From contig JAEHCQ010000006.1 in the NCBI GenBank assembly GCA_020696385.1, positions 1-64,000 of the forward strand: 64,000 bases of DNA, read 5' to 3'. Under the pieces are notes generated by a model that saw only the letters and a list, made by a program, of their open reading frames with translations, was not told where the DNA came from and did not search any database. Shown piece after piece: positions 32,277 to 48,194 of the stretch; within the stretch, counting starts at the first letter, position 1, and each line of letters opens with the position of its first letter. This DNA is from Methanobacteriota archaeon (GTDB lineage: Archaea > Thermoplasmatota > Thermoplasmata > SG8-5 > JAGLSY01). The position numbers were made by a program, and so were the translations under genes.

Positions 32277-33326
32277 TTATTTTTTCATAGTGTCCAGTTC
32301 TGCTATTTTCTCCTTCAGAACACCAAACGATACCTTTTTTCTATCAATAGAAACTGTCATGTTCTCTGATAAGTATATTTTCTTCATTACTCCGAAGCAC
32401 TCGTCCTTGAATTTCGCATGCAGGATCTCCTCCCAGTTGAAGTGCTCCTCCACATTGGGGAAGACCCCGAAATACAATAGATTGTACTTGCCCACATGAC
32501 CTCTGTAAGCGATCGGAACGCATGGGTCATCTCGAATATACTGGATGATCTGTTCCTTGCATTTGTCTATCCTGATGAAGCTCACAACAAATACATGGCC
32601 TGGTGGTATGCAGAATTGAGGGAATCTGCAAACTGGCTGTGTGATCAGTCCGGCCTGTGTCAGGGCTTCTATTCTTTTCTCAATTGTCTTTCTGTGTGTG
32701 TCCAGTTCCTTCGACAGTAGATGTTCATTGGTCTTGATGCCCTCTCCTGCCAGCAATTTTTTCAAGATATTGAATCCCAGTTCATTCAATTTGTAGCCAT
32801 TGAGTATCAACTCGCCATCCTTATCGAACCTCTTATCCATGCATGCTATACTGGAATTTGGATCATATTTGAATAGGAGTTCATTATTGACAAAGACCAC
32901 GTCAGCAGGGAATCGGTTCTCTAATGGGGGGAGCTTATCGTCCTCCACTATCTTCTCCTTCCAGTAGAAGTATGAGGACATGCTCTTGTGGAATTCGAAG
33001 AGCAGTGTGTTATAGCCATCATCCCATGATTTGAAGGAGGCGAATATTGTATCATCCTCGGCCAAGAACTTGTCGATCCTGGCTTGCCTTGGAAGATCAG
33101 CCCTTACAATGGAGAAAAGAGGTCGCTCCTTGAAAAGTCCAGTGAAGGGATAGTATGGGGCTGTCAATATTCCATTCTCGAAAAGTGCGGTCACCTGTGA
33201 CTTAATTGTATTTCTGTGGCGATCGAGGCTTTTGGCCAGAGCACTAACATTGATGCTCACTCCAACACCATCACATATTTTTTCGAGTATCGCGAGAGAA
33301 AGTTCGTCTTCTAGCATATCGGCCAT
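32277..33326 (-). CDS. Tandem-duplicated Lrp/AsnC-like wHTH regulator, divergent from the hybrid hydrogenase operon
   Basis: Two halves: LAKSLDRHRNTIKSQV..L...GIL and LSKELDTHRKTIEKRI..L...GLI; paralog at 41599-42654. Confidence 0.75.
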   Translation of the reverse strand: MADMLEDELSLAILEKICDGVGVSINVSALAKSLDRHRNTIKSQVTALFENGILTAPYYPFTGLFKERPLFSIVRADLPRQARIDKFLAEDDTIFASFKSWDDGYNTLLFEFHKSMSSYFYWKEKIVEDDKLPPLENRFPADVVFVNNELLFKYDPNSSIACMDKRFDKDGELILNGYKLNELGFNILKKLLAGEGIKTNEHLLSKELDTHRKTIEKRIEALTQAGLITQPVCRFPQFCIPPGHVFVVSFIRIDKCKEQIIQYIRDDPCVPIAYRGHVGKYNLLYFGVFPNVEEHFNWEEILHAKFKDECFGVMKKIYLSENMTVSIDRKKVSFGVLKEKIAELDTMKK

Positions 33327-33544: not shown

Positions 33545-35326
33545 ATGACTATGGTAGTTTCAGATATAGAAAGTGTCAAAAATGCCCAAAGTATGTCTAA
33601 GTATAAGGTCGGTATTTTTGATTTTGCAAGCTGTGAAGGATGTGAACTGCAGATAGCCAATCTTGAGGAGGATATCCTCGAGCTTTTGGATACGGTGGAG
33701 GTAGTATCATTTCGTGAGGTCATGAAGGAGCATTCCGATGACTACGATATTGCTTTCATTGAGGGTTCGATAAACAGGCCAGTTGATGAGAAAAGGCTGA
33801 AGGAGATCCGGGCAAATGCCAAGATCCTCATCGCCCTTGGTGATTGTGCCACAACTGGTTGTGTTAATAAACTGAGGAACCAATGGCCAGATGCGGAAAA
33901 TCTCAAAGAGGTCTATGCGGATGCAGACATTGCGAATAATGAGTATTTCGATGTCTTCCCGACAAAGAAGCTCAATGAGGTCGTGGATGTTGATTTCTAT
34001 ATCCGTGGATGTCCAGTCAGGAAAGAACAGGTCCTGTACTACATAAGGCGTCTTACCACGATGGCTCCAAGGAAGAACCTGGATCTCCGATTCGGTGTCA
34101 CCGCCAGGGAGCTTGAATCAGATACAAGGTCCATCATCCAGTACGATCCTCAGAAGTGCATACTGTGCAGGCATTGCGATGTTGTTTGCAATGATATCCT
34201 GGACATACACGCTATTGGATTGACCAATAAGGGAAATGAGTCCATCATATCCACGCCTTTCAATAAGGGTCTGGATGATAACAAATGTATCTCATGCGGA
34301 CAGTGTTTGGTCAACTGCCCGGTTGGTGCATTCTCCGAGCATTCCGATGTGGAGAAGGCTATAGGATTGCTTGACGATCCAAACAATTTCGTTGTGTTCG
34401 TTATAGATCTAACAGCTGCTGCAACAGCCATGGAAGTCCTGCCAACAGACAGAGAGGACTTTGGCGAGGCTTTGGGAAGTCTCATAGCGTCATTGAAATC
34501 ACTGGGAGCTGACAGAGTTGTGGATTTCACACATTTCAATTATCTTTCACTGGCAGCACAGGGAACTTATGTTAGCGAGAATGACGACATGATTTTCACA
34601 TCATGGTGTCCAAGTGCCAATTCGTACATCCGAAAATTCCATCCTGAGTTCAAAAAGAATCTGCAGAAGGTGTCATCACCCGAGCAGATTATGTTGGATG
34701 TCCTGGGTGAGAGATATACAAAGGGAGAGAAGGATCTGAAGATAATCCTTCTGTCACCATGTATCGTCCACAAGGGTAATTCAAAGATCGATGCGGTCTT
34801 GACTGCCAGGGAACTTCCAAGACTTCTCAAGCAGAAGGGCGTGGACATTGACTTCTATGAGCCTTCGGAAGGTGTGTTCGATTGCGAACTTGGCTTGTCC
34901 AGTGTCTTTGTCAAGGGTGCCAGTAGCGACTATGCTTACTCATTGGCAATAATACAGACGGCTTACATGAGAAAGTTCAATAATCTCGATGCCCGGCTGG
35001 CTGTGACCACTCTTGAGGATTATGTTCATGAAATGGCCTTCGACAGTGAAGAAGGCTTCTTCAATGCTCTCATAATCGAGGATCTGGCGAAGGCGAGTAA
35101 GTATCTGACAAAGGACATTGCCAAGAGATACAATGTGGTGGAACTGTACCCATGTTTCCACGGTTGTCTAACAGGTGGCGGAACCGTACCAACTACTTCG
35201 ATAGATGTTATTGACCAGCGTAGGGACCATCTGAAGAATTTCAAGGGCGAGTCCAAGGGGCCTGTCTGGTTCTCAAAGCAGATAATAGAGGCTTATGACA
35301 AGCAGATAAAAGGAGGTGATGAGTAA
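33545..35326 (+). CDS. Fusion of [NiFe]-hydrogenase small-subunit N-domain, 2[4Fe-4S] and [FeFe]-hydrogenase-like H-domain (group F-type hybrid subunit)
   Basis: FDFASCEGC, EGS, GDCA, GCP; CILCRHC...C and CISCGQC...CP; TSWCP, SPCIVHK and ELYPCFHGCLTGGG. Likely start ATG 33593. Confidence 0.9.
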   Translation: MTMVVSDIESVKNAQSMSKYKVGIFDFASCEGCELQIANLEEDILELLDTVEVVSFREVMKEHSDDYDIAFIEGSINRPVDEKRLKEIRANAKILIALGDCATTGCVNKLRNQWPDAENLKEVYADADIANNEYFDVFPTKKLNEVVDVDFYIRGCPVRKEQVLYYIRRLTTMAPRKNLDLRFGVTARELESDTRSIIQYDPQKCILCRHCDVVCNDILDIHAIGLTNKGNESIISTPFNKGLDDNKCISCGQCLVNCPVGAFSEHSDVEKAIGLLDDPNNFVVFVIDLTAAATAMEVLPTDREDFGEALGSLIASLKSLGADRVVDFTHFNYLSLAAQGTYVSENDDMIFTSWCPSANSYIRKFHPEFKKNLQKVSSPEQIMLDVLGERYTKGEKDLKIILLSPCIVHKGNSKIDAVLTARELPRLLKQKGVDIDFYEPSEGVFDCELGLSSVFVKGASSDYAYSLAIIQTAYMRKFNNLDARLAVTTLEDYVHEMAFDSEEGFFNALIIEDLAKASKYLTKDIAKRYNVVELYPCFHGCLTGGGTVPTTSIDVIDQRRDHLKNFKGESKGPVWFSKQIIEAYDKQIKGGDE

Positions 35327-35805
35327 TGGAAGCTAAAGATAAATTCATTATAGATACTATACTACATACCTATTCAAATATAGATGACCCTCAACTTGTG
35401 ATATTGCAGAATATTCAGGAAATTCTCGGATATGTCGGAGAGGAATATCTCACATATGTTTCCGAGAACAGTGAATATTCACTTACCGAACTTTATGGTG
35501 TTGTATCCTTCTATCCTCAATTTAGATTTGACCCACCTGGAAAACACACCATCAAGGTCTGCAGTGGTACAGCATGCCATGTTAGAGGTGGCTCTGGCAT
35601 CGCACAGGAATTGGAAGATATTCTGGAGATCAAACCTGGCGGAACCACAAAAGATGGATTGTTCTCACTAGAGTCCGTCAGATGTCTGGGATGCTGTGGT
35701 CTTTCACCTGTCATCATGATCGATGAAGAGACATATGGCCGTGTGAAGAAAGGTGGCCTTCAAAAGATACTTGAATCTTACAAAACCGAGGAGGTTGCTG
35801 AATGA
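35326..35805 (+). CDS. HydC/NuoE-like [2Fe-2S] subunit
   Basis: GVVSFY, CSGTAC, CLGCC; TAATG overlap and GGAGGTGA RBS. Confidence 0.93.
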   Translation: MEAKDKFIIDTILHTYSNIDDPQLVILQNIQEILGYVGEEYLTYVSENSEYSLTELYGVVSFYPQFRFDPPGKHTIKVCSGTACHVRGGSGIAQELEDILEIKPGGTTKDGLFSLESVRCLGCCGLSPVIMIDEETYGRVKKGGLQKILESYKTEEVAE

Positions 35806-35861
35806 GAGAGCATAGCGATTTCATTCTGGAGCCCGTAACGCAGAGGAGGGGTCTACAATGA
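35788..35861 (+). repeat. Intercistronic double-hairpin element copy C, with mini-ORF MREHSDFILEPVTQRRGLQ* (35802-35861)
   Basis: GAATGA-GA-GAGCATAGCGA-TT-TCATTC then AGCCC-GTAA...GGA-GGGGTCT; ATGA overlaps at both ends. Confidence 0.75.
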
Positions 35862-38800
35862 AAATAAGCAAGATCGTCCACCTTAGGGACATGGCCCAGA
35901 GGGGTAAGGAATCCATGGATAATGGAACACCCCAGGTGATATTTGGATTGGCCACCTGTGGAATAGCAGCTGGCGGAATGCCGCTCAAGGAATATGCAGA
36001 GCTGTATCTGGATGAGAACGATGTTCATGCGGACATCGTTTCCGTGGGTTGCATCGGTATGTGCCATGCGGAACCATTGGTCGATATCAAATTACCCGGA
36101 AAGCCACGTGTTACCTATTCGGACATGGACATTGAAAAGCTGAAGAAGATACTGGATGAGCACCTTGTTGGGGAGGAGCCCGTCAAGGACCTTGCAATGT
36201 GCCAGCTTACAGATGAGATATCCGAGTGCGAGCATGGTGTCATTGCCGAGACCGATATCTATGATGGCATTCCAAGATATCAGGATCTACCTTTCTTTGC
36301 CAAGCAGATAAGGGTGGCCTTGAGGAACTGTGGAATTGTGGTTCCTGAGGATATCGAGGAATACATCGCCAGGGGCGGCTACCGAGCTGCTTACAGATCA
36401 CTGTTCGAACTAACGCCAGAGGAAATAATTGGCGAGGTCAAGACATCTGGAATACGCGGAAGAGGTGGAGCTGGTTTCCCAACTGGTTTGAAATGGGAGT
36501 TCTGTCACAAAGCACCAGGTGACGTGAAATACGTTATCTGTAATGCAGATGAAGGAGATCCAGGAGCTTACATGGATCGTGCAGTTTTAGAAGGTGATCC
36601 GCACAGTGTTATCGAAGGTATGATAATCGGTGGATACGCAATGGGAGCCTCGGATGGTTATATCTACATCCGTGCTGAATACCCGCTGGCCATCGAGAAA
36701 CTGAAGAAAGCTATTGCTTCTGCAGAAGAACATGGCATACTTGGTGACCGTGTCTTTGGAATGGATTACAGCTTCAGGATACACATTCGTGAGGGAGCTG
36801 GTGTTTTCGTTTGTGGTGAAGAAACTGCGCTCATAAACTCCATCGAAGGTAAGAGAGGCGAACCGAGGCCAAGACCGCCATTCCCGGCTGTCAGCGGTCT
36901 TTGGGGCAAACCTACAAATATCAACAATGTCGAGACCTGGGCCAATATCGCCATGATACTTCAGAAGGGCGGAAAATGGTTCTCCACCATGGGAACAGAG
37001 AAGAGCACTGGGACTAAAGTATTCTCTTTGGTAGGGAAAGTGAACCGCGCAGGTCTTATTGAAGTTCCAATGGGAATTCCGATGAAGGACATCATCTATG
37101 AGATCGGCGGCGGTATCATGGACGGCCGCAAGTTCAAGGCCGTTCAGACAGGCGGCCCCTCTGGTGGTTGTATTCCGGAGGAACATCTGGATATTCCCGT
37201 GGATTATGATAATCTGAAAACACTGGGTTCCATTGTTGGATCTGGTGGAATGGTGGTTCTCGATGAGGACACCTGCATGGTGGATGTTGCAAGATACTTC
37301 CTCACTTTCACAGCCGAGGAATCATGTGGGAAATGTACTCCATGCAGGATCGGAACAAGAAGATTGCTGGAGATACTTGAGAAGATATGTCACGGAGAAG
37401 GTGTGATGGAGGATCTCGAGGTACTTACGAGCCTTTCCGAGCAAGTGAGTGCAAGTGCGCTCTGTGCCCTTGGAGGAACAGCACCCAATCCGATCATCAC
37501 CACCATGAAGTACTTCATGAACGAGTATGTGGATCACATTGAGAACAAAATATGTGATGCATCTGTTTGCGCAGCCATGTTCAAGTCGCCATGTCAGAAC
37601 ACATGCCCGGCAGGAACCAATGTGCCTGGTTACATCCAGCTGATAACAGAAGGCAGGTATGCAGAAGCATATGATGTCAACAGGGAGGCAAACCCCTTCC
37701 CATCCATTTGTGGAAGGGTCTGTGAGCATCCTTGTGAAGGTAGATGCCAGCGTGCGCAATTGGACGAACCAATCGCCATTCGTGAGCTCAAGAGATATGC
37801 TTCTGATGAGGCATTCAAGGCAGGCGTTGGAAAAATATCCACACTTGATGATGTGGATAAGACCATCGCCATTGTGGGTGGAGGACCATCCGGTCTTTCA
37901 GCAGCCTATTTCCTGAGAAGGATGGGGTACAAGCCAACTATCTATGAAGCCGAAGAGAAGATGGGTGGCTGGGTACGATACGGAATTCCAAAGTACAGAC
38001 TGCCACATGAGATAATCGACAAGGAGATCCAGGATATCATCGATCTGGGTGTTGTGGCCAAGACAAATACCAGTGTGGGCAAGGACGTGACAATGGAAAC
38101 ACTGCTCAATGATAATGATGCGGTATACCTGGCCATCGGAGCCCAGAAGGACACGAAACTGGGACTGGAAGGTGAAGATCTTCCAGGCGTGCTTCCAGGA
38201 CTTCAGCTGCTCAAGGAAATGAACAGCGGCAAGTCTGTAGATCTGGGTCAGAGCATTCTCGTGATAGGTGGAGGAAATGTGGCTATCGATGTCGCAAGGA
38301 CCGCTGTCAGGATGGGAACCAAGGTCACCATATGCTACAGACGAGAAGAGGATGACATGCCAGCTTACGATGAGGAGATCGAACACTGCAGAGAGGAAGG
38401 CGTGGAATATCACTTCCTGGTCGCACCCGAGAAGCTCATTGTGGAAGGCGGAAAGGTCGTTGGAGCAGTCTTCAGAAAGAATGTCATGGGCGACTTCACC
38501 AAGTGGGGCCGCAGATCACCTGTCGCTACCGATGAGACTGTCGAGATAAGGGCTGACCGTGTGGTCAATGCCATTGGACAACAATTGGATACTGACTTTG
38601 CTGGTGGAATGAATATCGTGGGTGATTCAAGGTGGATACCCGTAGAAGGAACAGGAAGCTCAGCTTGGTTCCCGAAGATATTCGCTGGTGGAGACGCAGT
38701 AACTGGACCTGCAAGTGTGATAGATGTGGTGGCTGATGGTAAGAGAGCGGCCAAGAACATTGATCTGTTCTTGGGTGGCAATGACCGACTGGCCGAGTTG

Positions 38801-39013
38801 GAAAAGATGAACAATACCAACTATTCCAATGTCGAGCCAGACAATGCCGAGCCAATGCAGAGACAGGGCGTTAAGGAACTCAATGCTGATGATAGGACAT
38901 GCGGCTTCGAGGAAGTTGTCATGTGTATGGATTCAGAATGTGCAAAGAAAGAGGCATCCAGGTGTTTGAGGTGTGATCTCAGTGCGGACACAGATGGAGG
39001 TGATGTTGAATGA
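35858..39013 (+). CDS. HydB/NuoF diaphorase fused to a GltD/NfnB-like FAD-NADP(H) module
   Basis: N-terminal TRX-like [2Fe-2S], GRGGAGFP, NADEGDPGAYMD, FVCGEE, GGPSG, CGKCTPC...C; then PCQNTCP, CGRVC..PCE..C, GGGPSG, GGGNVAID, YRR, EASRCLRC. Confidence 0.93.
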   Translation: MKISKIVHLRDMAQRGKESMDNGTPQVIFGLATCGIAAGGMPLKEYAELYLDENDVHADIVSVGCIGMCHAEPLVDIKLPGKPRVTYSDMDIEKLKKILDEHLVGEEPVKDLAMCQLTDEISECEHGVIAETDIYDGIPRYQDLPFFAKQIRVALRNCGIVVPEDIEEYIARGGYRAAYRSLFELTPEEIIGEVKTSGIRGRGGAGFPTGLKWEFCHKAPGDVKYVICNADEGDPGAYMDRAVLEGDPHSVIEGMIIGGYAMGASDGYIYIRAEYPLAIEKLKKAIASAEEHGILGDRVFGMDYSFRIHIREGAGVFVCGEETALINSIEGKRGEPRPRPPFPAVSGLWGKPTNINNVETWANIAMILQKGGKWFSTMGTEKSTGTKVFSLVGKVNRAGLIEVPMGIPMKDIIYEIGGGIMDGRKFKAVQTGGPSGGCIPEEHLDIPVDYDNLKTLGSIVGSGGMVVLDEDTCMVDVARYFLTFTAEESCGKCTPCRIGTRRLLEILEKICHGEGVMEDLEVLTSLSEQVSASALCALGGTAPNPIITTMKYFMNEYVDHIENKICDASVCAAMFKSPCQNTCPAGTNVPGYIQLITEGRYAEAYDVNREANPFPSICGRVCEHPCEGRCQRAQLDEPIAIRELKRYASDEAFKAGVGKISTLDDVDKTIAIVGGGPSGLSAAYFLRRMGYKPTIYEAEEKMGGWVRYGIPKYRLPHEIIDKEIQDIIDLGVVAKTNTSVGKDVTMETLLNDNDAVYLAIGAQKDTKLGLEGEDLPGVLPGLQLLKEMNSGKSVDLGQSILVIGGGNVAIDVARTAVRMGTKVTICYRREEDDMPAYDEEIEHCREEGVEYHFLVAPEKLIVEGGKVVGAVFRKNVMGDFTKWGRRSPVATDETVEIRADRVVNAIGQQLDTDFAGGMNIVGDSRWIPVEGTGSSAWFPKIFAGGDAVTGPASVIDVVADGKRAAKNIDLFLGGNDRLAELEKMNNTNYSNVEPDNAEPMQRQGVKELNADDRTCGFEEVVMCMDSECAKKEASRCLRCDLSADTDGGDVE

Positions 39014-39069
39014 GCGACTATAAGGAGCACATTCAAAAGCCCGTAATGATAATGGAGGGATTCTGAATG
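38996..39069 (+). repeat. Intercistronic double-hairpin element copy D, with mini-ORF MSDYKEHIQKPVMIMEGF* (39010-39066)
   Basis: TTGAATG-AGC-GACTATAAGGA-GCA-CATTCAA then AGCCC-GTAA...GGA-GGGATT; the TGA abuts the next ATG. Confidence 0.8.
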
Positions 39070-39747
39070 GCAACGACTTCATTCAAAATAAACATAGTGA
39101 TTGATGGAAAGGACTATGCTGGAGAGCCGAACCAGACAGTACTGGATGTAGCAAGGGCGAACTCGGTTGATATACCAACCCTTTGCTTCAATCCACTGTT
39201 CCCCGACCACAGGATCGGGTCTTGCAGACTGTGTCTGGTCGAGGTGAAAGCAGGGGGCAGACCCGGTCTGCAACCAAGTTGTACGATGCCAGTTTCTTCT
39301 GGATTATCTGTATCCACTATCAGCGATGCGGTGTATCAGGCAAGGAGGACTGTTGTAGAACTTCTGCTATCCGAGCATGTTCAGAAATGTCGCGATTGTC
39401 CAGTCAGTGGCGAGTGTAACTTTGCCAAGCTGTGCAGGGATTATGATATTAATGGAGTACCCGTATGTGCCGAATGCCCGAATCAGGGAGAAGGCTGTCT
39501 TTTGACAAGAGGAGAGCTTTGCCTGGGACCATTGACATATGCCAACTGTAATGCTTTCTGCACCCGAAAAGGGTACAGGTGCGAGGGTTGTCATTCGATA
39601 ATGGCCAATGAGGATATTCTCAGGTTCGGATTGAAGGCATACAAGGATGCTGGCTTCACAAAAGAAGAGATACTTGTAGCGGCCAAGGTCTTCTCCTATG
39701 ATTCGATGGAGATGCTTGAGCGTGTGATGACCGAGGAGGGGTTTTGA
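39067..39747 (+). CDS. Fusion of HydA/NuoG N-terminal [2Fe-2S] and His-[4Fe-4S] domain with the [NiFe] small-subunit C-terminal Fe-S domain
   Basis: IPTLC...GSCRLCLVE...C; H.xxC..C.....C; then PVCAEC...C...CLGP....C...C......CEGC, matching the C-terminal half of 45590-46366. Confidence 0.9.
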   Translation: MATTSFKINIVIDGKDYAGEPNQTVLDVARANSVDIPTLCFNPLFPDHRIGSCRLCLVEVKAGGRPGLQPSCTMPVSSGLSVSTISDAVYQARRTVVELLLSEHVQKCRDCPVSGECNFAKLCRDYDINGVPVCAECPNQGEGCLLTRGELCLGPLTYANCNAFCTRKGYRCEGCHSIMANEDILRFGLKAYKDAGFTKEEILVAAKVFSYDSMEMLERVMTEEGF

Positions 39748-39808
39748 ATGCGAGAACAAAGTGATTGTATTCAAGAACCCGGAATGCCAAAGGAGGGATT
39801 CTAAGATG
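39733..39808 (+). repeat. Intercistronic double-hairpin element copy E, with mini-ORF MREQSDCIQEPGMPKEGF* (39748-39804)
   Basis: TTTTGAATGC-GA-GAACAAAGTGA-TT-GTATTCAAGA then GAACCC-GGAA...GGA-GGGATTC; the mini-ORF ends EGF* like the upstream gene. Confidence 0.8.
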
Positions 39809-41131
39809 AGTGAAATAAACATTAATGTAGAGCATTTGACAAGAGTAGAAGGACATGGAAACATCGTCCTGAATGCGAAAGATGGTACCATTGAGAAGAT
39901 ACAGTGGCAGGTCTCAGAGGCCCCACGTCTCTTCGAGTCCTTCGTCAGAGGCAAGCCATACAATCAGTTGGCTCCAATAACATCCAGGATATGTGGTATC
40001 TGTTCAATAGGCCACACACTGGCCTCATTGAAAGCTACTGAGGCCGCTATGGATATTGAAATATCCGAGCAGAGTCAGAAACTGAGACGATTGGCTATCC
40101 ATGCCGAGAATCTTCAGAGCCACATACTCCATGTAGGATACCTTGTAGCTCCTGATCTTTTTGGTGTTGGGAGCGTGGTGCCACTCGTTGGTTCAAACCC
40201 CAACGAGGTATTGGCTATCGTCAAGCTCCACAGACAGGCTAACTTGATGTCCGATCTGATATGCGGCAGGACGACACATCCTACAAATCTGGTGCCAGGC
40301 GGTATCTACAAAACACCATCTCCATATGCGCTGAAGGATATCAAACAGAACCTGCTGGATATGGTTCCAACAGGCAATGCGGTCGGCGAGGTCATACTTG
40401 CCAATGCAGGAGCCCTTCCGGATTTCAAGAGAGATACGGAATACATCGCTCTTGTTACGGATGATGAATATGCCCTGTATGATGGAATGGTTGGGTCAAC
40501 CGATGAGGAGCCACAGCACGTGGATGCTTACAAGACCATTGTGAATGAGTTCGTGGTCCCATATTCCACAGCCAAGTTTACCAAGAATAAACGCGACTCA
40601 TACATGGTCGGAGCATTGGCCAGGTTCAACCTGAATGCCGACAAGCTCAGTCCTATGGCCAAAGAATGGGCCAGCAAGTTCGGTCTAAAACCAGTTAATC
40701 CAAATCCCTTCATGAACAATGTGGCGCAATTCGTTGAATTCGTTCACTCCATCGAGGATTCCGTCAGGATAATCGACGAGCTATTGGACGGCGGATTGAA
40801 GCAGGAGCCAACACCAAAGGTCACGCCAAAGGCAGGACGTGGTGTAGGTGCTGTGGAAGTTCCAAGAGGTCTTCTCTTCCATGAATATGAGTATGATGAC
40901 AAGGGAAACTGTGTAAAGGCGAACTGTGTGATACCGACCAATATGAACCACAACAATATCAACCAGGATTTCGCGGCTATAGCTCCAACACTCCTTGATC
41001 TACCAGAGAAACAGATCGAGCTGACATTGGAGATGCTTGTCAGAGCGTATGATCCGTGCATAAGCTGTTCCACCCACTATCTGAATGTCGAGTGGGCCAA
41101 TGGCTCTGGGACAAAAACGGGGGGGAACTAA
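39806..41131 (+). CDS. Group 3b-type [NiFe]-hydrogenase large subunit (hybrid operon)
   Basis: TRVEGHG, RICGICSIGH (L1), EVPRG, DPCISCSTH (L2) plus cleavable C-terminal extension. Confidence 0.96.
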   Translation: MSEININVEHLTRVEGHGNIVLNAKDGTIEKIQWQVSEAPRLFESFVRGKPYNQLAPITSRICGICSIGHTLASLKATEAAMDIEISEQSQKLRRLAIHAENLQSHILHVGYLVAPDLFGVGSVVPLVGSNPNEVLAIVKLHRQANLMSDLICGRTTHPTNLVPGGIYKTPSPYALKDIKQNLLDMVPTGNAVGEVILANAGALPDFKRDTEYIALVTDDEYALYDGMVGSTDEEPQHVDAYKTIVNEFVVPYSTAKFTKNKRDSYMVGALARFNLNADKLSPMAKEWASKFGLKPVNPNPFMNNVAQFVEFVHSIEDSVRIIDELLDGGLKQEPTPKVTPKAGRGVGAVEVPRGLLFHEYEYDDKGNCVKANCVIPTNMNHNNINQDFAAIAPTLLDLPEKQIELTLEMLVRAYDPCISCSTHYLNVEWANGSGTKTGGN

Positions 41132-41553
41132 TGGAAAGTGTATCACAGAATTCGTATGAAGCAAATGATATCCTTGACCTCATCCAGGCCTGTGGAACAG
41201 GAACTGGCATGGAGCAACAAGGTGCGCGCAATTCTCTTGAAAGGGTAGGAGGATCTGCTGTTGGTCCACTGTCAGAGGCACTATTGCATGACACGAATGC
41301 AATAGTGAGATACAGGTCTGCCGAGGCCCTTGGTCATATTGGGGACCCCTGTGCTATAGAACCATTGATAAAAGCTCTGGGGGATGATGATTCATCGGTC
41401 CAGTGGAGGTCCATCGAGGCATTGATAGATATCGGTGAGCCAGCAATGGAAATGATCGCTTCGAAAGTAAATGGCAGGAATATCAGTAAGGATCTGCGAT
41501 GTAACCTGCGCTATGCTTTGATGGAGATCCTGGAAAATCGAGGTAAGCAATAA
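41131..41553 (+). CDS. HEAT/PBS-lyase repeat protein (140 aa)
   Basis: VRYRSAEALGHIGDP.AIEPLIKAL.D....VQW....AL..IG; TAATG overlap with the large-subunit gene. Confidence 0.85.
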   Translation: MESVSQNSYEANDILDLIQACGTGTGMEQQGARNSLERVGGSAVGPLSEALLHDTNAIVRYRSAEALGHIGDPCAIEPLIKALGDDDSSVQWRSIEALIDIGEPAMEMIASKVNGRNISKDLRCNLRYALMEILENRGKQ

Positions 41554-41580: not shown

Positions 41581-41612
41581 GGTCGGATGAGTAATACTTC
41601 ACTCATCCGATC
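41581..41612. terminator. Hairpin between convergent genes, including the regulator's 3' end
   Basis: GGTCGGATGAGT-AATACTTC-ACTCATCCGATC. Confidence 0.55.
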
Positions 41613-42654
41613 TCTTTTCATTTTTTCTCTTCAAGTTCTTTATGATGCCGTGTGATATCTTCTGCTGATCGATATGCGTGGCCATTCTGGGTGAGAGGTA
41701 TATCTTCTTCATGGCTCCTATGCATTCCTTGAACCTGTGATCGTACTTGTCCTCCCAATCAAAATGATCCTCCACACTGGGGAACACACCAAAGAGAAGG
41801 AAATTATATCTGCCGATGCCAGCTTCCCACGCCATCGGTATATGATCATCATTCTCTATTGCCTTTAGTATCTTTGATTTGGTCCTCTTGACCTCCATCA
41901 GGTAATAGACAAGTATCTGGTCTGGGGGTACGAAGAAATTTGGAAATCTGCATACGGGATCCGAGATTATGCCCGCCTCTTTCAATGATCTGAGGCGTCT
42001 TTCGATGGTCTTTCTGTGGACATCCAGCTTCTGTGCCAGCATGTTCTCATTGGTTCTTATCCCATCTCCCTGTACCAGCATTTTGAGTATATTGAAGCAT
42101 AGATTGTTGATATTGTATCCATTGAGGCTTAGCTTGCCAGTCCCCTTGAACTTTTTCTCCATTATGAATATTGGAGAGTAAGGTTTGTTCTTTATGATGT
42201 CCTTATTGCTGAACACCAGGACATGAGCTGAATTCCTCCTGTCTCTCTGCGGGATCTTATTGGTATTGACTATCTCTTTTTTCCACTGGCCATAGGAGTG
42301 TATGTCCTTGTGGAATTCGATCAATAATGTATTGTATTCCTCGTCCCTAACATGGAAGGCTGCGAAGATGTGCTCATCGCTCTTGAACCAGTTCTCGGTA
42401 TCATCATTTCTCGGAAGCTCAGCTCTTGCGATCGCGAGCATCGGGTATTCATCATACAGCCAGCTAAATGGATACACTGGCTTATTGATAATTTCATGGC
42501 TGAATAATGCATTTATCTGGGACTTGATAGTGTTCCGATGTCTATCAAGGGTCTTTGCAAGGTGGCTTATGTTCACTTCCACTCCTTCACCGGTGCAAAT
42601 ACTCTCCAGAATTTTCAGATTCAATTCATCTTCTAGCAGTTCTGTCATTATCAC
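41599..42654 (-). CDS. Tandem-duplicated Lrp/AsnC-like wHTH regulator (paralog), divergent from the group 3b operon
   Basis: LLEDEL...ILE.IC.G.GV..N.S.LAK.LDRHRNTIKSQ shared with 32277-33326; probable start ATG 42648. Confidence 0.75.
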   Translation of the reverse strand: MIMTELLEDELNLKILESICTGEGVEVNISHLAKTLDRHRNTIKSQINALFSHEIINKPVYPFSWLYDEYPMLAIARAELPRNDDTENWFKSDEHIFAAFHVRDEEYNTLLIEFHKDIHSYGQWKKEIVNTNKIPQRDRRNSAHVLVFSNKDIIKNKPYSPIFIMEKKFKGTGKLSLNGYNINNLCFNILKMLVQGDGIRTNENMLAQKLDVHRKTIERRLRSLKEAGIISDPVCRFPNFFVPPDQILVYYLMEVKRTKSKILKAIENDDHIPMAWEAGIGRYNFLLFGVFPSVEDHFDWEDKYDHRFKECIGAMKKIYLSPRMATHIDQQKISHGIIKNLKRKNEKRSDE

Positions 42655-42925: not shown

Positions 42926-43657
42926 ATGGAAAAGACCTATAAATTAAACATTAATGGTTTGGATGATAAAATGGATGGAGGCATTCCTGAAAAACACATA
43001 ATTCTTCTGGCAGGAACACCTGGAACCATGAAGTCCACATTAGCCTACCGTACTTTGATGGCCAATGCACAGGACGGTGAGACCAAGGCTCTATATCTAA
43101 CACTGGAGCAGGATCGGGACAATTTCATGTACCACCTGACCAAGCTGGGTATGGGCGATAATGTGGAGGGAAGACTGAATCTCTATGACCTCACCACGAC
43201 AAGAGAGCAGTGGTTGAAGCTGAGTCAGGACTCGGGGATCCATCCAGAGGACCCGACTGGCAAAGTGAACATGGAGACCTTCAAGAGGCAATTGGAAACA
43301 TTGAAGAATGCTCTGGGTTTTAATCTGTTGGTCATTGATTCTCTACCTGTGGTCGAGATGATGTTCAAAATGGATGATCCGAGGGATGAGTTGTTCCACT
43401 TTTTCAAATGGCTGAAGAAGCTGGGTGTAACAACATTCTTGATAACCGAGATGAGCCAGGATTCTCCAAAATTCAGCAAGCATGATATCGATTTCCTTGC
43501 TGATGGTATAATCAAATTATCAATGGAACAGATAAATCCTACCAAGAGCCAGAGACAGATCCAGATAATCAAGATGAGAGGTGTGAATCACACCACAGAT
43601 CCATTTGAGCTTCGCTACACGCCAGATGGGTTCGAAGCACTAAAAGTCATTAATTGA
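42926..43657 (+). CDS. KaiC-like/RAD55 single-domain RecA-superfamily ATPase
   Basis: Walker A GTPGTMKS, Walker B LVIDS, LITE, FLADGII.L, I.KMRG..H. Confidence 0.9.
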   Translation: MEKTYKLNINGLDDKMDGGIPEKHIILLAGTPGTMKSTLAYRTLMANAQDGETKALYLTLEQDRDNFMYHLTKLGMGDNVEGRLNLYDLTTTREQWLKLSQDSGIHPEDPTGKVNMETFKRQLETLKNALGFNLLVIDSLPVVEMMFKMDDPRDELFHFFKWLKKLGVTTFLITEMSQDSPKFSKHDIDFLADGIIKLSMEQINPTKSQRQIQIIKMRGVNHTTDPFELRYTPDGFEALKVIN

Positions 43658-43676: not shown

Positions 43677-45593
43677 ATGAAAATAATATCAAAACAAGAT
43701 TTCGATGCCTTTATAAATGCCCTGATCCAGGATGAATCTTTGGATGTTGAGGGTGTGAAAGCCAAAGGAGATAAGTTCGTATTTGGACCGTTAGATACAG
43801 CAACAGAGCTGCGCCTGGACTATGATGTGACCATACTTCCACCCAAGAAGTATTTCCTTCCTCAGTACGAGACCATGATGCATTTCGATATATCAACTGG
43901 GAAGGCCACGGCTCCAGCAATGGACACGAAGAAGGTCATTGTGGGAGTTCATCCATATGACCTGATAGCGATCCAGCAGATGGACAAATACTTCTTTGAC
44001 ACCAATGTTGATGACATATATCTGCAGAAGAGGAAGAACTCTCTTCTGATAGGTGTAATGCCCGCGAAGGCCTCTGAGAAGGCCTTCTATGGGGATCTGA
44101 TGAAAAATGCAGGTACTCCAGAATTGCACTTCGATCTGATGGTGACTGACCTGGGTGTGCTATATGCTGTCCTTCCAGGAACTCCGGAAGGGGCACAGCT
44201 CCTTTCGAGAGCGACATCCCGGGATGCACAGCCCCAGGAGATAGAGGCTGCCAAGAACAAGCGGCAGGAAGCGATAGACAGGGCAACAAGAGGTTTGAAG
44301 GTTGGTCCTAAGGCATGGCATTCTCTTCTATCGAACAACTACATGAGCTCAATATGGAAGGAGATGGCAGATCAGTGTCTGGCATGCGGTTCCTGTACTC
44401 TCGTTTGTCCAACATGTTTCTGCTATGATGTCAATGACGAGGTCGGATTGGACCTCAATACCGGTGTCAGGACCAGAACCTGGGATGGCTGTCTTCTTAG
44501 AGACTTCACAAAGGTCGCACCTGGCGAGATATTCAGGGAGGATATCGTCGAGAGATATCGCCACAGGATAAACAGGAAGGGCAAGTACCTCCCCGAATCA
44601 ATGGGCTTCGTTGCCTGTGTGGGATGTGGGAGATGCTCAAGCCAGTGTGTTCCTGATATTGCTGATCCGGTCAATTTGATCAATAAATTGGCTGAGGCAA
44701 CTATGGACACGATACCCGACACGAATATGGGCCATGTGCCAGAGAAATCTGACCTTGGAATAATTGCCAGTGATTCATTGTACATACCAAGGACCGCGAC
44801 CATAAGACGGATGATGAAACTCACCAAGACAGAGACTTTCTTCGAGATCGGTCTAGATGATGGCCAGCCTCTTGGACATGTGCCTGGTCAGTTTGTCGAG
44901 GTATCCATATACGGTGTGGGTGAAGCACCAATTTCAGTATCTTCTCCTCCCGGAGGGAACACATTCCAATTGATAGTAAGGAATGTGGGGGATCTGACCA
45001 ATAAGCTCCATTCATTGAGCGAAGGAGACAAGATTGGGATCAGAGGTCCATTCGGTACTGGCTTTGACACGGAAGGTATGAGGGGAAAGAACATTTTGTT
45101 CATTGGTGGTGGATTGGGCATAGTTCCAATGCGCTCCCTTATCAAGTATGTGCTGAACAACCGTGCAGACTATGGCAAGGTCATGATCCTCTATGGTTGC
45201 AAGGATCCCAGTGAGCTTCTCTTCAAGGATGAGATATCTCAATGGGAGAATACACCTGGCGTCGAAATGCATAGGACAGTGGATACCTGTGCAGAGGGCG
45301 AAAATTGGGATGGGCAGGTAGGTGTCATAACCACCATCATGCCTATGGTGACCTTCGACCCATTGAATACCATCGCTGTGGTAGTTGGACCACCGATCAT
45401 GTACAGGTTCGTGAACCGCGATCTGCTTAACATGGGTATGCCTGAGGAGAATATCATTGTCTCTCTGGAAAGGCGTATGAAATGCGGCGTGGGCAAGTGC
45501 GGTCACTGCCAGATAAATGGAATATATGTCTGTAAAGAGGGGCCTGTATTCAATTATAAAGACATTAAAGATGAACCGGAGGCGTTTTCATGA
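43677..45593 (+). CDS. Fused group 3b hydrogenase beta (2[4Fe-4S]) and gamma (FAD/NAD(P), [2Fe-2S]) subunit
   Basis: PPKKYF, CLACGSC..VCPTCFC, CVGCGRC...C; then PGQF, GEAPIS, RGPFG, GGGLG, ERRMKCGVGKCGHC...C.EGPVF. Confidence 0.93.
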   Translation: MKIISKQDFDAFINALIQDESLDVEGVKAKGDKFVFGPLDTATELRLDYDVTILPPKKYFLPQYETMMHFDISTGKATAPAMDTKKVIVGVHPYDLIAIQQMDKYFFDTNVDDIYLQKRKNSLLIGVMPAKASEKAFYGDLMKNAGTPELHFDLMVTDLGVLYAVLPGTPEGAQLLSRATSRDAQPQEIEAAKNKRQEAIDRATRGLKVGPKAWHSLLSNNYMSSIWKEMADQCLACGSCTLVCPTCFCYDVNDEVGLDLNTGVRTRTWDGCLLRDFTKVAPGEIFREDIVERYRHRINRKGKYLPESMGFVACVGCGRCSSQCVPDIADPVNLINKLAEATMDTIPDTNMGHVPEKSDLGIIASDSLYIPRTATIRRMMKLTKTETFFEIGLDDGQPLGHVPGQFVEVSIYGVGEAPISVSSPPGGNTFQLIVRNVGDLTNKLHSLSEGDKIGIRGPFGTGFDTEGMRGKNILFIGGGLGIVPMRSLIKYVLNNRADYGKVMILYGCKDPSELLFKDEISQWENTPGVEMHRTVDTCAEGENWDGQVGVITTIMPMVTFDPLNTIAVVVGPPIMYRFVNRDLLNMGMPEENIIVSLERRMKCGVGKCGHCQINGIYVCKEGPVFNYKDIKDEPEAFS

Positions 45594-46366
45594 AACCAAA
45601 AGTAGCATTCTTTGACTTTGCCAGTTGTGAGGGGTGTCAGCTTCAGGTCGTGAACCTGGAGGAGGCTATCCTTGACGTATTGGCATTGGTGGACATAGTG
45701 TCCTTCAGAGAGGCCATGAAGGAACACTCGGACGATTATGATATAGCCATAATCGAGGGTTCCATCGCAAGGCCAATTGACATAGATCGAATAAAGAAGA
45801 TACGCGAGCAGGCCAGCATACTCATAACCATCGGAGCATGCGCTCACCTTGGCGGTGTGCAGAGGCTGGGTAATCAGTGGGATGCCGAGGCAAATAAGGT
45901 CGAGGTCTATGAGAGACACCCAGGCTCGGAGATAACCAAGGGTGATTCCAACCCATATTTCGCACAGATAAAGCACAGAGCGGTGAGCGAGATAGTGAAG
46001 GTGGACGCTGCCATACCCGGCTGCCCCATTGACTCCAATGAATTTGGCAAGGTCTTGGTCGCACTTCTGACTGGCAAAAAACTACCCATACCAGACTACC
46101 CGGTATGTGTGGAGTGCAAGAAGAACGAGAATATCTGTGTATTCGAAACAGGCGGATTCTGCATGGGTCCAGTCGCTCGGGCTGGATGCGGTGCGCCCTG
46201 CCCAACACATGGTGGCGAATGCGAGGCATGTAGGGGATATGTGGATCATCCGCATACTCAGGCGCATGGTGAGGTCCTGAAGAAATACGGACTCAGTCCG
46301 GATGATATCATGACCAAGAGGACCATGTACAATTATCGCGACTTCGAAGATAAAGGAGGTGACTAG
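45590..46366 (+). CDS. Group 3b [NiFe]-hydrogenase small (delta) subunit, intact
   Basis: CEGC, EGS, GACA, PGCP, PVCVEC, CMGP, GC...CP, CEAC. Confidence 0.95.
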   Translation: MKPKVAFFDFASCEGCQLQVVNLEEAILDVLALVDIVSFREAMKEHSDDYDIAIIEGSIARPIDIDRIKKIREQASILITIGACAHLGGVQRLGNQWDAEANKVEVYERHPGSEITKGDSNPYFAQIKHRAVSEIVKVDAAIPGCPIDSNEFGKVLVALLTGKKLPIPDYPVCVECKKNENICVFETGGFCMGPVARAGCGAPCPTHGGECEACRGYVDHPHTQAHGEVLKKYGLSPDDIMTKRTMYNYRDFEDKGGD

Positions 46367-46367
46367 A

Positions 46368-47666
46368 ATGGGTGAGATAAACATCAATGTAGAGCACTTG
46401 ACAAGAGTTGAAGGCCATGGGAATATAGTATTGAACGCAAAAGATGGAACCGTTGAGTTCGTCCAGTGGCAAGTATCCGAGGCTCCAAGATTCTTCGAAT
46501 CATTTGTCCGAGGAAGACCGTACAATGAACTGAGCCACATCACCTCAAGGATATGCGGTATATGCTCGATAGGACACAGCCTGGCCTCGTTGAAAGCGAC
46601 CGAGGCCGCAATGGGCATCCAGATAACTGAGCAGACTCAGATATTGAGAAGACTAGCCATCCATGCAGAGAACTTGCAGAGCCATGTGCTCCATGTAGGT
46701 TACCTGGTCGCGCCCGATCTTCTGGGAGCACCAAGTGTCGTACCTCTGGCAAGCAGTCATACCGATGCGGTCCTGAAAATTGTCGGGCTACACAGATTGG
46801 CAAATGAATTCTCCAATCTGGTCTGTGGAAGGACAGTACACCCTGTAAGCCTCATAGTTGGTGGTTTCAGCCACATACCCTCAGAAAAGCAATTGAAGGA
46901 AATTCGCCAGAAATGGGTGGATGCGATACCAGATGTGGTCGCGGTCGCTGAGATCGTTCTATCACTGGCTCACAAACTTCCGAACTTCACAAGGGAGACG
47001 GAATTCATCGCGCTTACGGCTGACGATGAATACGCGATCTATGATGGCGACATCGGTTCGACCGATGGCGGACGTTGGCCAGTTGCAGAATACTTGGACA
47101 TAACCAATGAGTTCGTTGTGCCGCATTCGACTGCAAAGTACACCAAGCACAAGAGGGAATCGTACATGGTGGGCGCACTTGCCAGGTTCAATTTGAACTA
47201 TGACAAGATGGGGCCACTGGCAAAGGAATGGGCTGGCAAGTTCGGACTTCAGCCAGTCAACCACAATCCTTTCATGAACAATGTCGCTCAGCTTGTAGAG
47301 ATCGTCCACAGTATCGAGGATACACTGGCTCAGATCGACAAGCTACTGGAAATGGGTGTCAATGTCAATGAGAGGCCCAAGTACGAAGTGAAGGCTGGCC
47401 GAGGTGTCGGAGCTGTTGATGTACCACGTGGAATTCTTTTCCACGACTACACATACGATGACAAGGGCGTATGTGTAAAGGCAAACTGCATAATCCCGAC
47501 CAACCAGAACCACAATAATATAAACTTGGACTTCCAGGCAATAGCCCCAACATTACTGAACCTCCCGGAAAAGGAGATCGAGCTGACATTGGAGATGCTC
47601 GTCAGAGCGTATGATCCATGCATAAGCTGTTCGACCCATTATCTGGACGTGCAGTGGAAGAGATAG
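46368..47666 (+). CDS. Group 3b [NiFe]-hydrogenase large (alpha) subunit
   Basis: RICGIC and DPCISCSTH; close paralog of 39806-41131; GGAGGTGA RBS. Confidence 0.96.
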   Translation: MGEININVEHLTRVEGHGNIVLNAKDGTVEFVQWQVSEAPRFFESFVRGRPYNELSHITSRICGICSIGHSLASLKATEAAMGIQITEQTQILRRLAIHAENLQSHVLHVGYLVAPDLLGAPSVVPLASSHTDAVLKIVGLHRLANEFSNLVCGRTVHPVSLIVGGFSHIPSEKQLKEIRQKWVDAIPDVVAVAEIVLSLAHKLPNFTRETEFIALTADDEYAIYDGDIGSTDGGRWPVAEYLDITNEFVVPHSTAKYTKHKRESYMVGALARFNLNYDKMGPLAKEWAGKFGLQPVNHNPFMNNVAQLVEIVHSIEDTLAQIDKLLEMGVNVNERPKYEVKAGRGVGAVDVPRGILFHDYTYDDKGVCVKANCIIPTNQNHNNINLDFQAIAPTLLNLPEKEIELTLEMLVRAYDPCISCSTHYLDVQWKR

Positions 47667-47700
47667 ATCCCCCAAAAATAAAAGGGATGGAAATAACAAT

Positions 47701-47736
47701 GGAAGAGGCAGTTTAATATGCCTCTTCCCCCTTTCA
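47701..47736 (+). terminator. Hairpin after the hydrogenase large-subunit gene
   Basis: GGAAGAGGCA-GTTTAATA-TGCCTCTTCC followed by CCCTTTC. Confidence 0.55.
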
Positions 47737-47744
47737 TATTTTAC

Positions 47745-48194
47745 ATGAAACAGGCAATTATCGGTATTGGCAATCCTCTTATGGGGGATGACGGCGCTGG
47801 CATAGCGGTTCTCAACCTATTGAAACAGCGCAAGTCCGAGCTCCCGGAAGACATCGATTATGTCGAGATGGGAACTGGTGGTATCAATCTCGTTCATGTA
47901 CTGGCGGATTATGATAAAGTCGTGCTGATAGATGCAGCCAAGTTTGGAGGCCAGCCTGCTGAAATAAGAAAATTCAGGCCGGACGAGGTGCATACACTGA
48001 AGACCCAGGGCTACAGTCTTCATGATTGGGACCTTTTCACAAGCCTGGATATCTCCAAAAAAATGGGCGAGCTGCCCGATGATATTATTATTTTCAGTGT
48101 GCAGATCATCGATGCATCGCCAGTGGATCACATGACACCACAGGTGGAAAAGGCTGTGGTGGAGATGGCTGGTATGATTGTAGATTTATTTTGA
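47745..48194 (+). CDS. Hydrogenase maturation protease
   Basis: GIGNPLMGDDGAG, LIDA, SLH motifs. Confidence 0.94.
   Translation: MKQAIIGIGNPLMGDDGAGIAVLNLLKQRKSELPEDIDYVEMGTGGINLVHVLADYDKVVLIDAAKFGGQPAEIRKFRPDEVHTLKTQGYSLHDWDLFTSLDISKKMGELPDDIIIFSVQIIDASPVDHMTPQVEKAVVEMAGMIVDLF

Follow-up and report, generated by a model that had tools for sequence, protein, structure and literature searches.

The stretch of DNA analysed here (the window; 64,000 nucleotides (nt), positions 1 to 64,000 of contig JAEHCQ010000006.1 in assembly GCA_020696385.1 of a Methanobacteriota archaeon) contains, at 33545-41131, five tightly spaced open reading frames (ORFs), all on the + strand and all at the coordinates given in an initial annotation made from the sequence alone. 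These ORFs are the operon of a group F [FeFe]-[NiFe] hybrid hydrogenase of a Thermoplasmatota archaeon, a published kind of enzyme (Greening et al. 2024, PMC11216029) of which the window operon is a further member. Genes 1 and 4 of the operon are reciprocal chimeras: gene 1 joins the N-terminal part of a [NiFe] hydrogenase small subunit (small-N) to the C-terminal part of the [FeFe] hydrogenase HydA (HydA-C), and gene 4 joins the N-terminal part of HydA (HydA-N) to the C-terminal part of the small subunit (small-C). The recognition of these reciprocal chimeras sharpens the published description of the hybrid. As an explanation of the locus as a whole, we hold it reasonably likely that the two chimeras interlock in trans, that the [FeFe] cassette had one origin, and that the [NiFe] head was exchanged later.

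Two complementary chimeras in the hybrid operon

The operon consists of the following features.

33545..35326, + strand: gene 1, chimera small-N::HydA-C, 593 amino acids (aa), from Pfam, PDB and NCBIfam matches
Gene 1, residues ~18-157: proximal-[4Fe4S] domain of a 3b-type [NiFe] small subunit
34019..34078, + strand: junction segment of gene 1, residues 159-178 (VRKEQVLYYIRRLTTMAPRKN region), in the hybrid-specific linker helix (residues 158-178), from the junction alignment
Gene 1, residues 180-275: HydA linker and domain with two [4Fe4S] clusters
Gene 1, residues 276-593: H-cluster domain
35326..35805, + strand: hydC, NuoE-like thioredoxin-like [2Fe-2S] subunit, 159 aa (PF01257, E 3e-43)
35858..39013, + strand: hydB, NuoF-like flavin mononucleotide (FMN)/NADH subunit with a GltD/NfnB-like module holding flavin adenine dinucleotide (FAD) and two [4Fe4S] clusters, 1051 aa
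39067..39747, + strand: gene 4, chimera HydA-N::small-C ('HydD' of the Cell paper), 226 aa, from Pfam, PDB and NCBIfam matches
Gene 4, residues 1-130: HydA-type module with a [2Fe2S] and a His-ligated [4Fe4S] cluster
Gene 4, residues 131-226: medial and distal [4Fe4S] domain of a [NiFe] small subunit
39761..41131, + strand: gene 5, [NiFe] large subunit of the hybrid, 456 aa (NiFeSe_Hases); GTG start, with an ATG 14 codons downstream

The gene order proposed in the initial annotation (small-N::HydA-C, hydC, hydB, HydA-N::small-C, large subunit) agrees with the ORFs and their Pfam matches. Its assignment to group F agrees with the text of PMC11216029, which describes a HyhS-HydA fusion, HydC, HydB, HyhL and a 'nuoG-like conduit', HydD, with four clusters, and with the presence of UBA147, the modelling subject of that paper, among the close relatives found in a scan of genome contigs (HydD 75% identical). 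The nearest genomes are Thermoplasmatota metagenome-assembled genomes, one of them 97% identical in gene 4. The gene 1 polypeptide has an N-terminal group 3 small-subunit domain and a C-terminal H-cluster domain, and the genes for HydC, HydB, a four-cluster HydD and a group 3 [NiFe] large subunit are contiguous with it. The Cys ligands of the H-cluster are conserved (C355, C406, C537 and C541 align with the HydA references). In the HydA-C tree (38 rows), the 18 hybrids form one clade (support 99), apart from the 20 other HydA sequences compared.

The gene 1 product generated Pfam hits on Oxidored_q6 (PF01058, residues 30-169), Fer4 dicluster (204-262) and Fe_hyd_lg_C (PF02906, 307-545). C30, C101 and C156, the two sets of four Cys in Fer4 and the four H-cluster ligands named above are invariant among 38 sequences, and the four H-cluster cysteines are kept in all aligned members of the gene 1 family. 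The small-subunit domain is carried by 85 of the 106 proteins found with gene 1, with length classes of ~570-593 aa and ~495-510 aa.

The gene 4 product matched Fer2_4 (residues 7-85) and NADH-G_4Fe-4S_3 (93-130), while the remaining ~95 residues match no Pfam family. Among 32 sequences, the invariant ligands are four Cys, then H104/C108/C111/C117, then eight Cys in small-C. The HydA-N module matched the HydA model in NCBIfam (6.5e-32) ahead of HoxU (1.5e-24) and NuoG (4.9e-22), and its best PDB match was 7q4v_A, HydA of the A. woodii [FeFe] HydABC (E 1.7e-22). Full-length relatives of gene 4 are rare, with 6 representatives at E <= 1e-30 among 1.84 billion, four of them HydA-N::small-C, and full-length gene 4 is present in 13 of 401 genomes of the phylum. 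A search with residues 100-226 as query, small-C included, gave 73 closer relatives, 69 of which are 215-254 aa long and have the Pfam domains of the HydA-N module.

The two chimeras complement each other at both parental proteins. When the intact small subunit encoded downstream at 45590 is taken as reference, its residues 2-147 are matched by gene 1 residues 19-158 (54% identity, E 2e-46) and its residues 167-253 by gene 4 residues 128-215 (28% identity, E 2e-11). On the delta subunit of P. furiosus sulfhydrogenase I (9nez_A), gene 1 residues 17-168 cover 1-148 and gene 4 residues 131-218 cover 161-249; on T. maritima HydA (7p5h_A), gene 4 residues 10-131 cover 3-119 and gene 1 residues 181-555 cover 119-500. 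The best family match of both chimeras is the same NCBIfam model of [FeFe] HydA (NF040763, 571 positions), on which gene 4 residues 8-133 fall on positions 1-122 (E 6.5e-32) and gene 1 residues 191-563 on positions 132-526 (E 2.1e-49); both score below its cut-off, as expected for chimeras. In gene 1 the break was placed between residues 178 and 179 (nt ~34078) and in gene 4 between residues 130 and 131 (nt ~39456), within a few codons of the positions previously proposed, ~34060 and ~39460. Thus, the earlier reading of genes 1 and 4 as reciprocal chimeras whose HydA and small-subunit halves are complementary to within a few residues holds in the sequence, PDB and NCBIfam ranges alike.

If the halves re-associate in trans, the two polypeptides interlock. 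Small-N and small-C would then rebuild a three-cluster small subunit under the large subunit, HydA-N and HydA-C would rebuild an M3-type HydA, and the interlocked chimeras would wire both catalytic sites to HydB and HydC (NAD(P)H, FMN and the GltD-like module). The modelled complex of the gene 1 and gene 4 products gave an interface score (ipSAE) of 0.84 against 0.02 for the best of three controls, and in a rough calibration 58 of 80 solved complexes attained the mark, as did 2 of 110 mismatched pairs. The three runs have at least 91% of contacts in common, and the predicted local distance difference test score (pLDDT) of the partners is at least 87. The interface involves small-N (100-113, 151-165), the linker (172-188), Fer4 (201-218, 255-270) and the H-domain (538-553) of gene 1, and residues of HydA-N within 39-119 and of small-C within 138-187 of gene 4. 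The two products are predicted by this model to bind each other through both halves, which supports the reassembly in trans suggested in the initial annotation. Folded alone with AlphaFold2, the gene 4 product had a mean pLDDT of 76 with low confidence in the Cys-rich small-C region (130-175), and Foldseek matched the HydA-N part of that model only.

The remaining subunits are a NuoE-like HydC, an extended HydB and the large subunit. HydB contains the NuoF FMN, SLBB and NADH_4Fe-4S domains followed by GltD-like Fer4_20 and Pyr_redox_2, a module that stands in place of the plain C-terminal ferredoxin domain of the bifurcating HydABC/Bfu family. The large subunit has the N- and C-terminal CxxC motifs (RICGICSIGH and DPCISCSTH) and is closest to sulfhydrogenase alpha of P. 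furiosus, its best PDB match (9nez_D, 4e-62). Its best NCBIfam matches are sulfhyd_ShyA and sulfhyd_HydA, both below cut-off. It is nested among intact 3b-type large subunits in the tree and is 71% identical to the paralogue encoded at 46359.

Several variants were seen in the families of genes 1 and 4. The short class of small-N::HydA-C (~495-510 aa, among P0028-P0085) lacks ~70 residues of the H-domain but keeps the four cysteines; it mostly has no precomputed PF02906 match, and it is found in type I operons (defined below) alongside HydD (L006, L119, L120). Two bacterial proteins of 859-869 aa (P0063 and P0075, one named Planctomycetota) carry receiver and histidine-kinase ATPase domains ahead of small-N::HydA-C, with the short H-domain and all four H-cluster Cys, and they may be a sensory form of the fusion. 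The L1 motif of gene 1 is (T/S)SWCP, and its W354 (~34604-34606) does not vary among 38 homologues. In the alignment this Trp stands opposite the leading Cys of TSCCP in reference [FeFe] HydA, a residue that we take to be the proton-relay cysteine. Proton-transferring residues vary among archaeal enzymes according to the text of PMC11216029. The protein P0110 (248 aa) has two tandem small-C-like Cys-rich units, no HydA-N module and no Pfam match.

Two gene orders and the separate histories of the parts

Twenty loci, all from one phylum, were examined (the window, 7 close relatives from the genome-contig scan and 12 from phylum genomes), and the part-by-part trees likewise cover loci of this phylum. 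Both fusions are present in 18 of the 20 loci, the other two being interrupted upstream by contig ends, and no locus with one fusion only was found among the 18 that cover both positions. Two gene orders occur. Type I, seen in nine loci including the window, runs small-N::HydA-C, hydC, hydB with the GltD part, HydA-N::small-C, large subunit; the UBA147 contig has this order over the part present. Type II, seen in nine loci that all belong to one other family (one of them cut), runs hydC, hydB without the GltD part, small-N::HydA-C, HydA-N::small-C, large subunit, with the two chimeric genes abutting, 0 or -4 nt apart. A comparison of break points across operons, proposed as a check in the initial annotation, places both junctions at the same positions in both types, with the common motifs ..YY.x[KR][FL]xxMxPxKN in gene 1 and LCxDxDxxxxVCAxCP in gene 4.

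Phylogenies of the half-domains, another check proposed there, gave a divided answer. Both HydA halves and small-C each unite the hybrids in one clade (HydA-C as above; HydA-N, 43 rows, support 99; small-C, 46 rows, 99/92), whereas small-N is split between 3b sublineages. In the small-N trees (44 and 43 rows), type I falls inside a clade of intact subunits, the window's paralogue among them, with support of 95/94 when the segment before the GCP motif is used alone, and type II lies beside another intact clade (96/83). The large-subunit tree (45 rows) has the same split of types I and II. In approximately unbiased (AU) tests run after the trees had been seen, a single hybrid clade was rejected for small-N (p 0.0086 and 0.0016) and for the large subunit (p 5e-7). 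The best PDB match of the type II large subunits is likewise P. furiosus sulfhydrogenase alpha (E 1.5e-75); since both types of head match this protein best, they represent two sublineages of 3b in the broad sense. Forcing type I small-C into the 3b clade costs 29.4 log-likelihood units (lnL), with a marginal AU result (p 0.0325).

The identities between segments were as follows.

Window small-N before GCP, against intact 3b subunits of another family: 69.8%
Window small-N before GCP, against 3b paralogues of its own lineage: 56.7%
Window small-N before GCP, against type II hybrids: 35.2%
The 21 residues after GCP, against intact 3b: 10-14%
The 21 residues after GCP, against type II hybrids: 45.5%
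Type I small-N, against 3b groups: 54-66% (3b against 3b, 60-71%)
Type I small-C, against 3b groups: 28-31% (3b against 3b, 52-56%)
Type I small-C, against type II small-C: 39%, the closest group for type I small-C

The two halves of the small subunit are therefore incongruent in origin here, small-N being 3b-like and small-C not, an outcome named in the initial annotation as refuting its proposal. These different histories contradict a reading of the crossover against the intact paralogue at 45590. The linker helix of gene 1, which follows the GCP motif, is common to type II hybrids and unlike intact 3b small subunits, and so marks the boundary of the mosaic just past GCP. In this helix, both hybrid types have a YY motif that also occurs in the intact clade adjoining type II, and the type II helix is 33% identical to that clade and ~10% to 3b. 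Over 21 residues, this likeness is weak evidence as to which of the two [NiFe] heads is ancestral.

Further features of the relatives concern the flanking genes and HydB. The type II HydB (L121-L128) is short, 431-435 aa with the NuoF core only. A gene of 358-382 aa lies just upstream of hydC in the four type II loci listed (L121, L122, L124 and L126), and it belongs to the AIR-synthase family in both loci scanned with Pfam (L121 and L126); presumably it is HypE-like. In Ca. Halarchaeoplasma (locus L006, 790-1812), a HyhB-like gene (Fer4_22) lies directly upstream of small-N::HydA-C, and it may be a remnant of a 3b operon that received the cassette. A metagenome scan with the HydD alignment revealed no hybrid loci from other phyla, its matches being dominated by the general [2Fe-2S] pattern, and all 80 metagenome loci kept match HydA-N only (residues ~1-167).

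Origin of the hybrid

The explanation that we favour separates the cassette from the head. The [FeFe] cassette, comprising the linker helix, HydA-C and HydA-N::small-C, would have had one origin across both hybrid types of the phylum, most simply by one reciprocal recombination of Campbell type that brought a circular hydA-bearing unit into a small-subunit gene. The [NiFe] head, that is the large subunit with small-N up to GCP, would later have been exchanged for another 3b-type head in at least one lineage, which would leave the window with a head in the lineage of the adjacent intact 3b operon and a small-C outside that lineage. On the sequence comparisons above, replacement of the head probably came later than the origin of the hybrid itself. 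No single event other than the Campbell-type integration of a circle gives two reciprocal fusions on the same strand, and a single reciprocal crossover is the simplest, though unproven, founding event for the ancestor of all these operons. The type I order fits a hydA-hydC-hydB circle and the type II order a circle of hydA alone; the two orders thus fit different circles, so at least one is secondary and the window order is unsafe as a fossil. The single crossover put forward in the initial annotation remains plausible for the ancestor, with complementary breaks in its favour; the proposal that the window order is its direct product is not supported, given the existence of the type II order.

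Several points weigh against this explanation. The evidence that HydA-N derives from HydA in particular is mixed: the H-cluster domain is present in 2 of the 40 top library matches scanned, most of the full-length matches among these 40 are NuoG/formate-dehydrogenase-like, the HydA-N tree leaves the placement between HydA and NuoG-like sequences undecided, and Foldseek on HydA-N ranks HydA, the HydA of NiFe-HydABCSL and complex I alike. The small-C clade stands on a long stem (1.58), so that fast evolution after the fusion could hide a 3b origin, and the AU result on small-C is marginal. Long-branch warnings were raised in the small-N and large-subunit trees where type II joins the other intact clade, and the AU tests on these parts were post hoc. 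According to the text of PMC11216029, the small-subunit domains fused to group F form one monophyletic group, which conflicts with the small-N trees. The hybrids of Bathyarchaeia, Lokiarchaeia, Brockarchaeia and Thermoproteia that the paper names lie outside the single-phylum set of loci. As for assembly in trans, the complex was modelled with custom alignments, for which the calibration is only rough, and its score may reflect the memory of the model for solved HydA and small-subunit structures, that is likeness and not binding. Lastly, no HydE, HydF or HydG was found above cut-off in the genome, which is 94.5% complete, leaving native maturation of the H-cluster unexplained; HydEFG are likewise missing from most archaeal genomes according to the text of PMC11216029.

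A tentative extension, to which we give less credence, is that the [FeFe] module is a portable cassette residing inside a [NiFe] small-subunit gene, re-seated by a single crossover at GCP, with the type II order as the fossil of the founding event. The module would comprise the linker helix, HydA-C and HydA-N::small-C, with or without hydC-hydB, and its flanks, small-N and the large subunit, would allow homologous recombination into a resident 3b operon on at least one occasion. The founding event would have been a Campbell-type integration of circularised hydA, and the window order would be derived.

Assembly by steps, in which the small subunit and a HydA/NuoG-like protein were separately split at domain boundaries and neighbouring genes then fused one by one, with a reciprocal crossover playing no part, is unlikely in our judgement. 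Complementarity alone leaves room for it, because domain boundaries are natural places for fission and fusion, and several known proteins favour it: small subunits with the proximal cluster only (A. mobile HydS, 179 aa; HoxY, 189 aa), stand-alone NuoG-N-like proteins such as HoxU, the common HydA forms without an N-terminal module (P0094-P0106), and small-C-only proteins (P0114 and P0249) besides the small-C tandem P0110 in the libraries. The failure of tree and fold to tie HydA-N to HydA over NuoG-like proteins also speaks for it. It needs at least four events, however. All 18 loci covering both positions hold both fusions, neither parent shows a gap or overlap beyond a few residues at the breaks, and the same HydA model is the best NCBIfam match of both chimeras.

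We regard as improbable the original proposal in its full form, that a circular hydC-hydB-hydA unit recombined once within hydA into a 3b small-subunit gene and that the window order is the unaltered product. The breaks are complementary within a few residues, the type I order is exactly that predicted by such an integration, small-N and the large subunit lie in the 3b lineage of the paralogue, and the hybrid and 3b operons are side by side in six loci. As the small-subunit halves have different histories, however, one crossover does not explain the operon as now seen: small-C is far less like 3b small-C than the 3b sequences are like one another and groups with type II, its placement in 3b being penalized as given above, and the 21 residues after GCP are hybrid-specific rather than 3b-like. 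Moreover, HydA-N and HydA-C place type I together with type II, and the latter differs in gene order and in the sublineage of its small-N and large subunit.

If types I and II had arisen independently from two [NiFe] lineages, through similar events with breaks at matching domain boundaries, this would account for the different 3b sublineages of their small-N and large subunits and for their differences in gene order and HydB (GltD module present or absent). Such an independent origin is very improbable and was rejected on the derived junction sequences common to both types and on the monophyly across types of small-C, HydA-N and HydA-C.

Known systems and neighbouring genes

The window has the same five genes as the group F system of UBA147 in the text of PMC11216029: HyhS-HydA fusion, HydC, HydB with a GltD-like domain, HydD and HyhL. 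In that text, all three [4Fe4S] clusters of the fusion protein count as part of the [NiFe] component, whereas in the window the small-subunit domain holds one of them and the HydA Fer4 domain the other two, the medial and distal clusters of the small subunit being on HydD. The methods of the paper place the HydD cofactors from 7T2R_A and 5ODC_E, so that likeness to a small subunit was used implicitly. None of the terms 'split', 'circular' and 'domain swap' is used in the text of the paper, whose figures or supplements may already show the composition of HydD, and a full-text literature search found no other paper combining these terms.

As the small subunit is divided and one half of it lies on HydD, both chimeric polypeptides would be needed for each catalytic site, and the changed assignment of clusters alters the basis on which electron paths are drawn. 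It also constrains heterologous expression, since the N-terminal clusters of HydA, like the medial and distal ones of the [NiFe] wire, are missing from gene 1 alone. The text of PMC11216029 reports activity for one Thermoplasmata fusion protein after artificial maturation. The separable histories of head and cassette suggest that the interface at the proximal cluster tolerates head swaps, which would be useful for engineering. They also call for caution in basing a '[NiFe] group 3f' on the large subunit or on small-N, and the way in which the hybrid originally came about cannot be deduced from the gene order of the window.

Among solved structures, NiFe-HydABCSL of Acetomicrobium mobile (7T2R/7T30) resembles the window in coupling a NuoE/F/G-like module to a group 3-type [NiFe] large subunit. 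Its HydS, which has the proximal-cluster domain only, matches gene 1 residues 17-170, and the N-terminus of its HydA matches gene 4 residues 7-131. That HydA, however, is a NuoG-like protein of 692 aa without an H-cluster domain and with the Fer4 domain in the same chain, and no small-C domain was detected by sequence in the A. mobile system. The window differs from NiFe-HydABCSL in having an H-cluster domain on gene 1, and gene 4 has small-C in place of the Fer4 and molybdopterin-like parts of 7t2r_A. The solved [FeFe] HydABC enzymes (T. maritima 7P5H, T. kivui 8A6T and A. woodii 7Q4V) are the best structure matches of both HydA halves (gene 1 with 8a6t_A, E 7e-46), and homologues of their HydB and HydC are present in the window. 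HydA is a single chain there, whereas in the window it is cut between the His-[4Fe4S] module and Fer4, with each part fused to half a small subunit. The 3b sulfhydrogenases (P. furiosus sulfhydrogenase I, 9NEZ; T. kodakarensis, 5YXY) are the best solved match of the large subunit and of both small-subunit halves, but the hyhB and hyhG of a 3b heterotetramer are absent from the hybrid operon, in which genes 1 and 4 each encode part of the small subunit.

The lineage to which small-N and the large subunit of the hybrid belong is represented in the window by an intact operon. The neighbouring features are as follows.

32277..33326, - strand: helix-turn-helix (HTH) regulator, divergent from the hybrid operon
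41599-42654, - strand: paralogous HTH regulator upstream of the 3b operon, beyond the KaiC-like gene
43677..48194, + strand: intact 3b-type (sulfhydrogenase-like) operon, ~2.5 kb downstream of the hybrid operon
43677-45593, + strand: hyhBG fusion of this operon
45590-46366, + strand: intact small subunit of this operon
46359-47666, + strand: intact large subunit of this operon
47718-48194, + strand: HycI-type protease of this operon

The intact operon is followed by hypD and hypA on the opposite strand. Gene conversion between the two adjacent operons was considered, but the protein identities (54% in small-N and 71% in the large subunit) are too low for a recent event. The two HTH regulators are 49% identical over 338 residues. 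A gene for a HEAT-repeat protein (41056-41553, + strand) overlaps the 3' end of the hybrid large-subunit gene, and a gene for a KaiC-family ATPase (42926-43657, + strand) sits between the two hydrogenase operons. A third small-N fragment is encoded on another contig of the same genome, too short for interpretation (C36, 521 bp), and it is 67% identical to gene 1 and to the intact paralogue.

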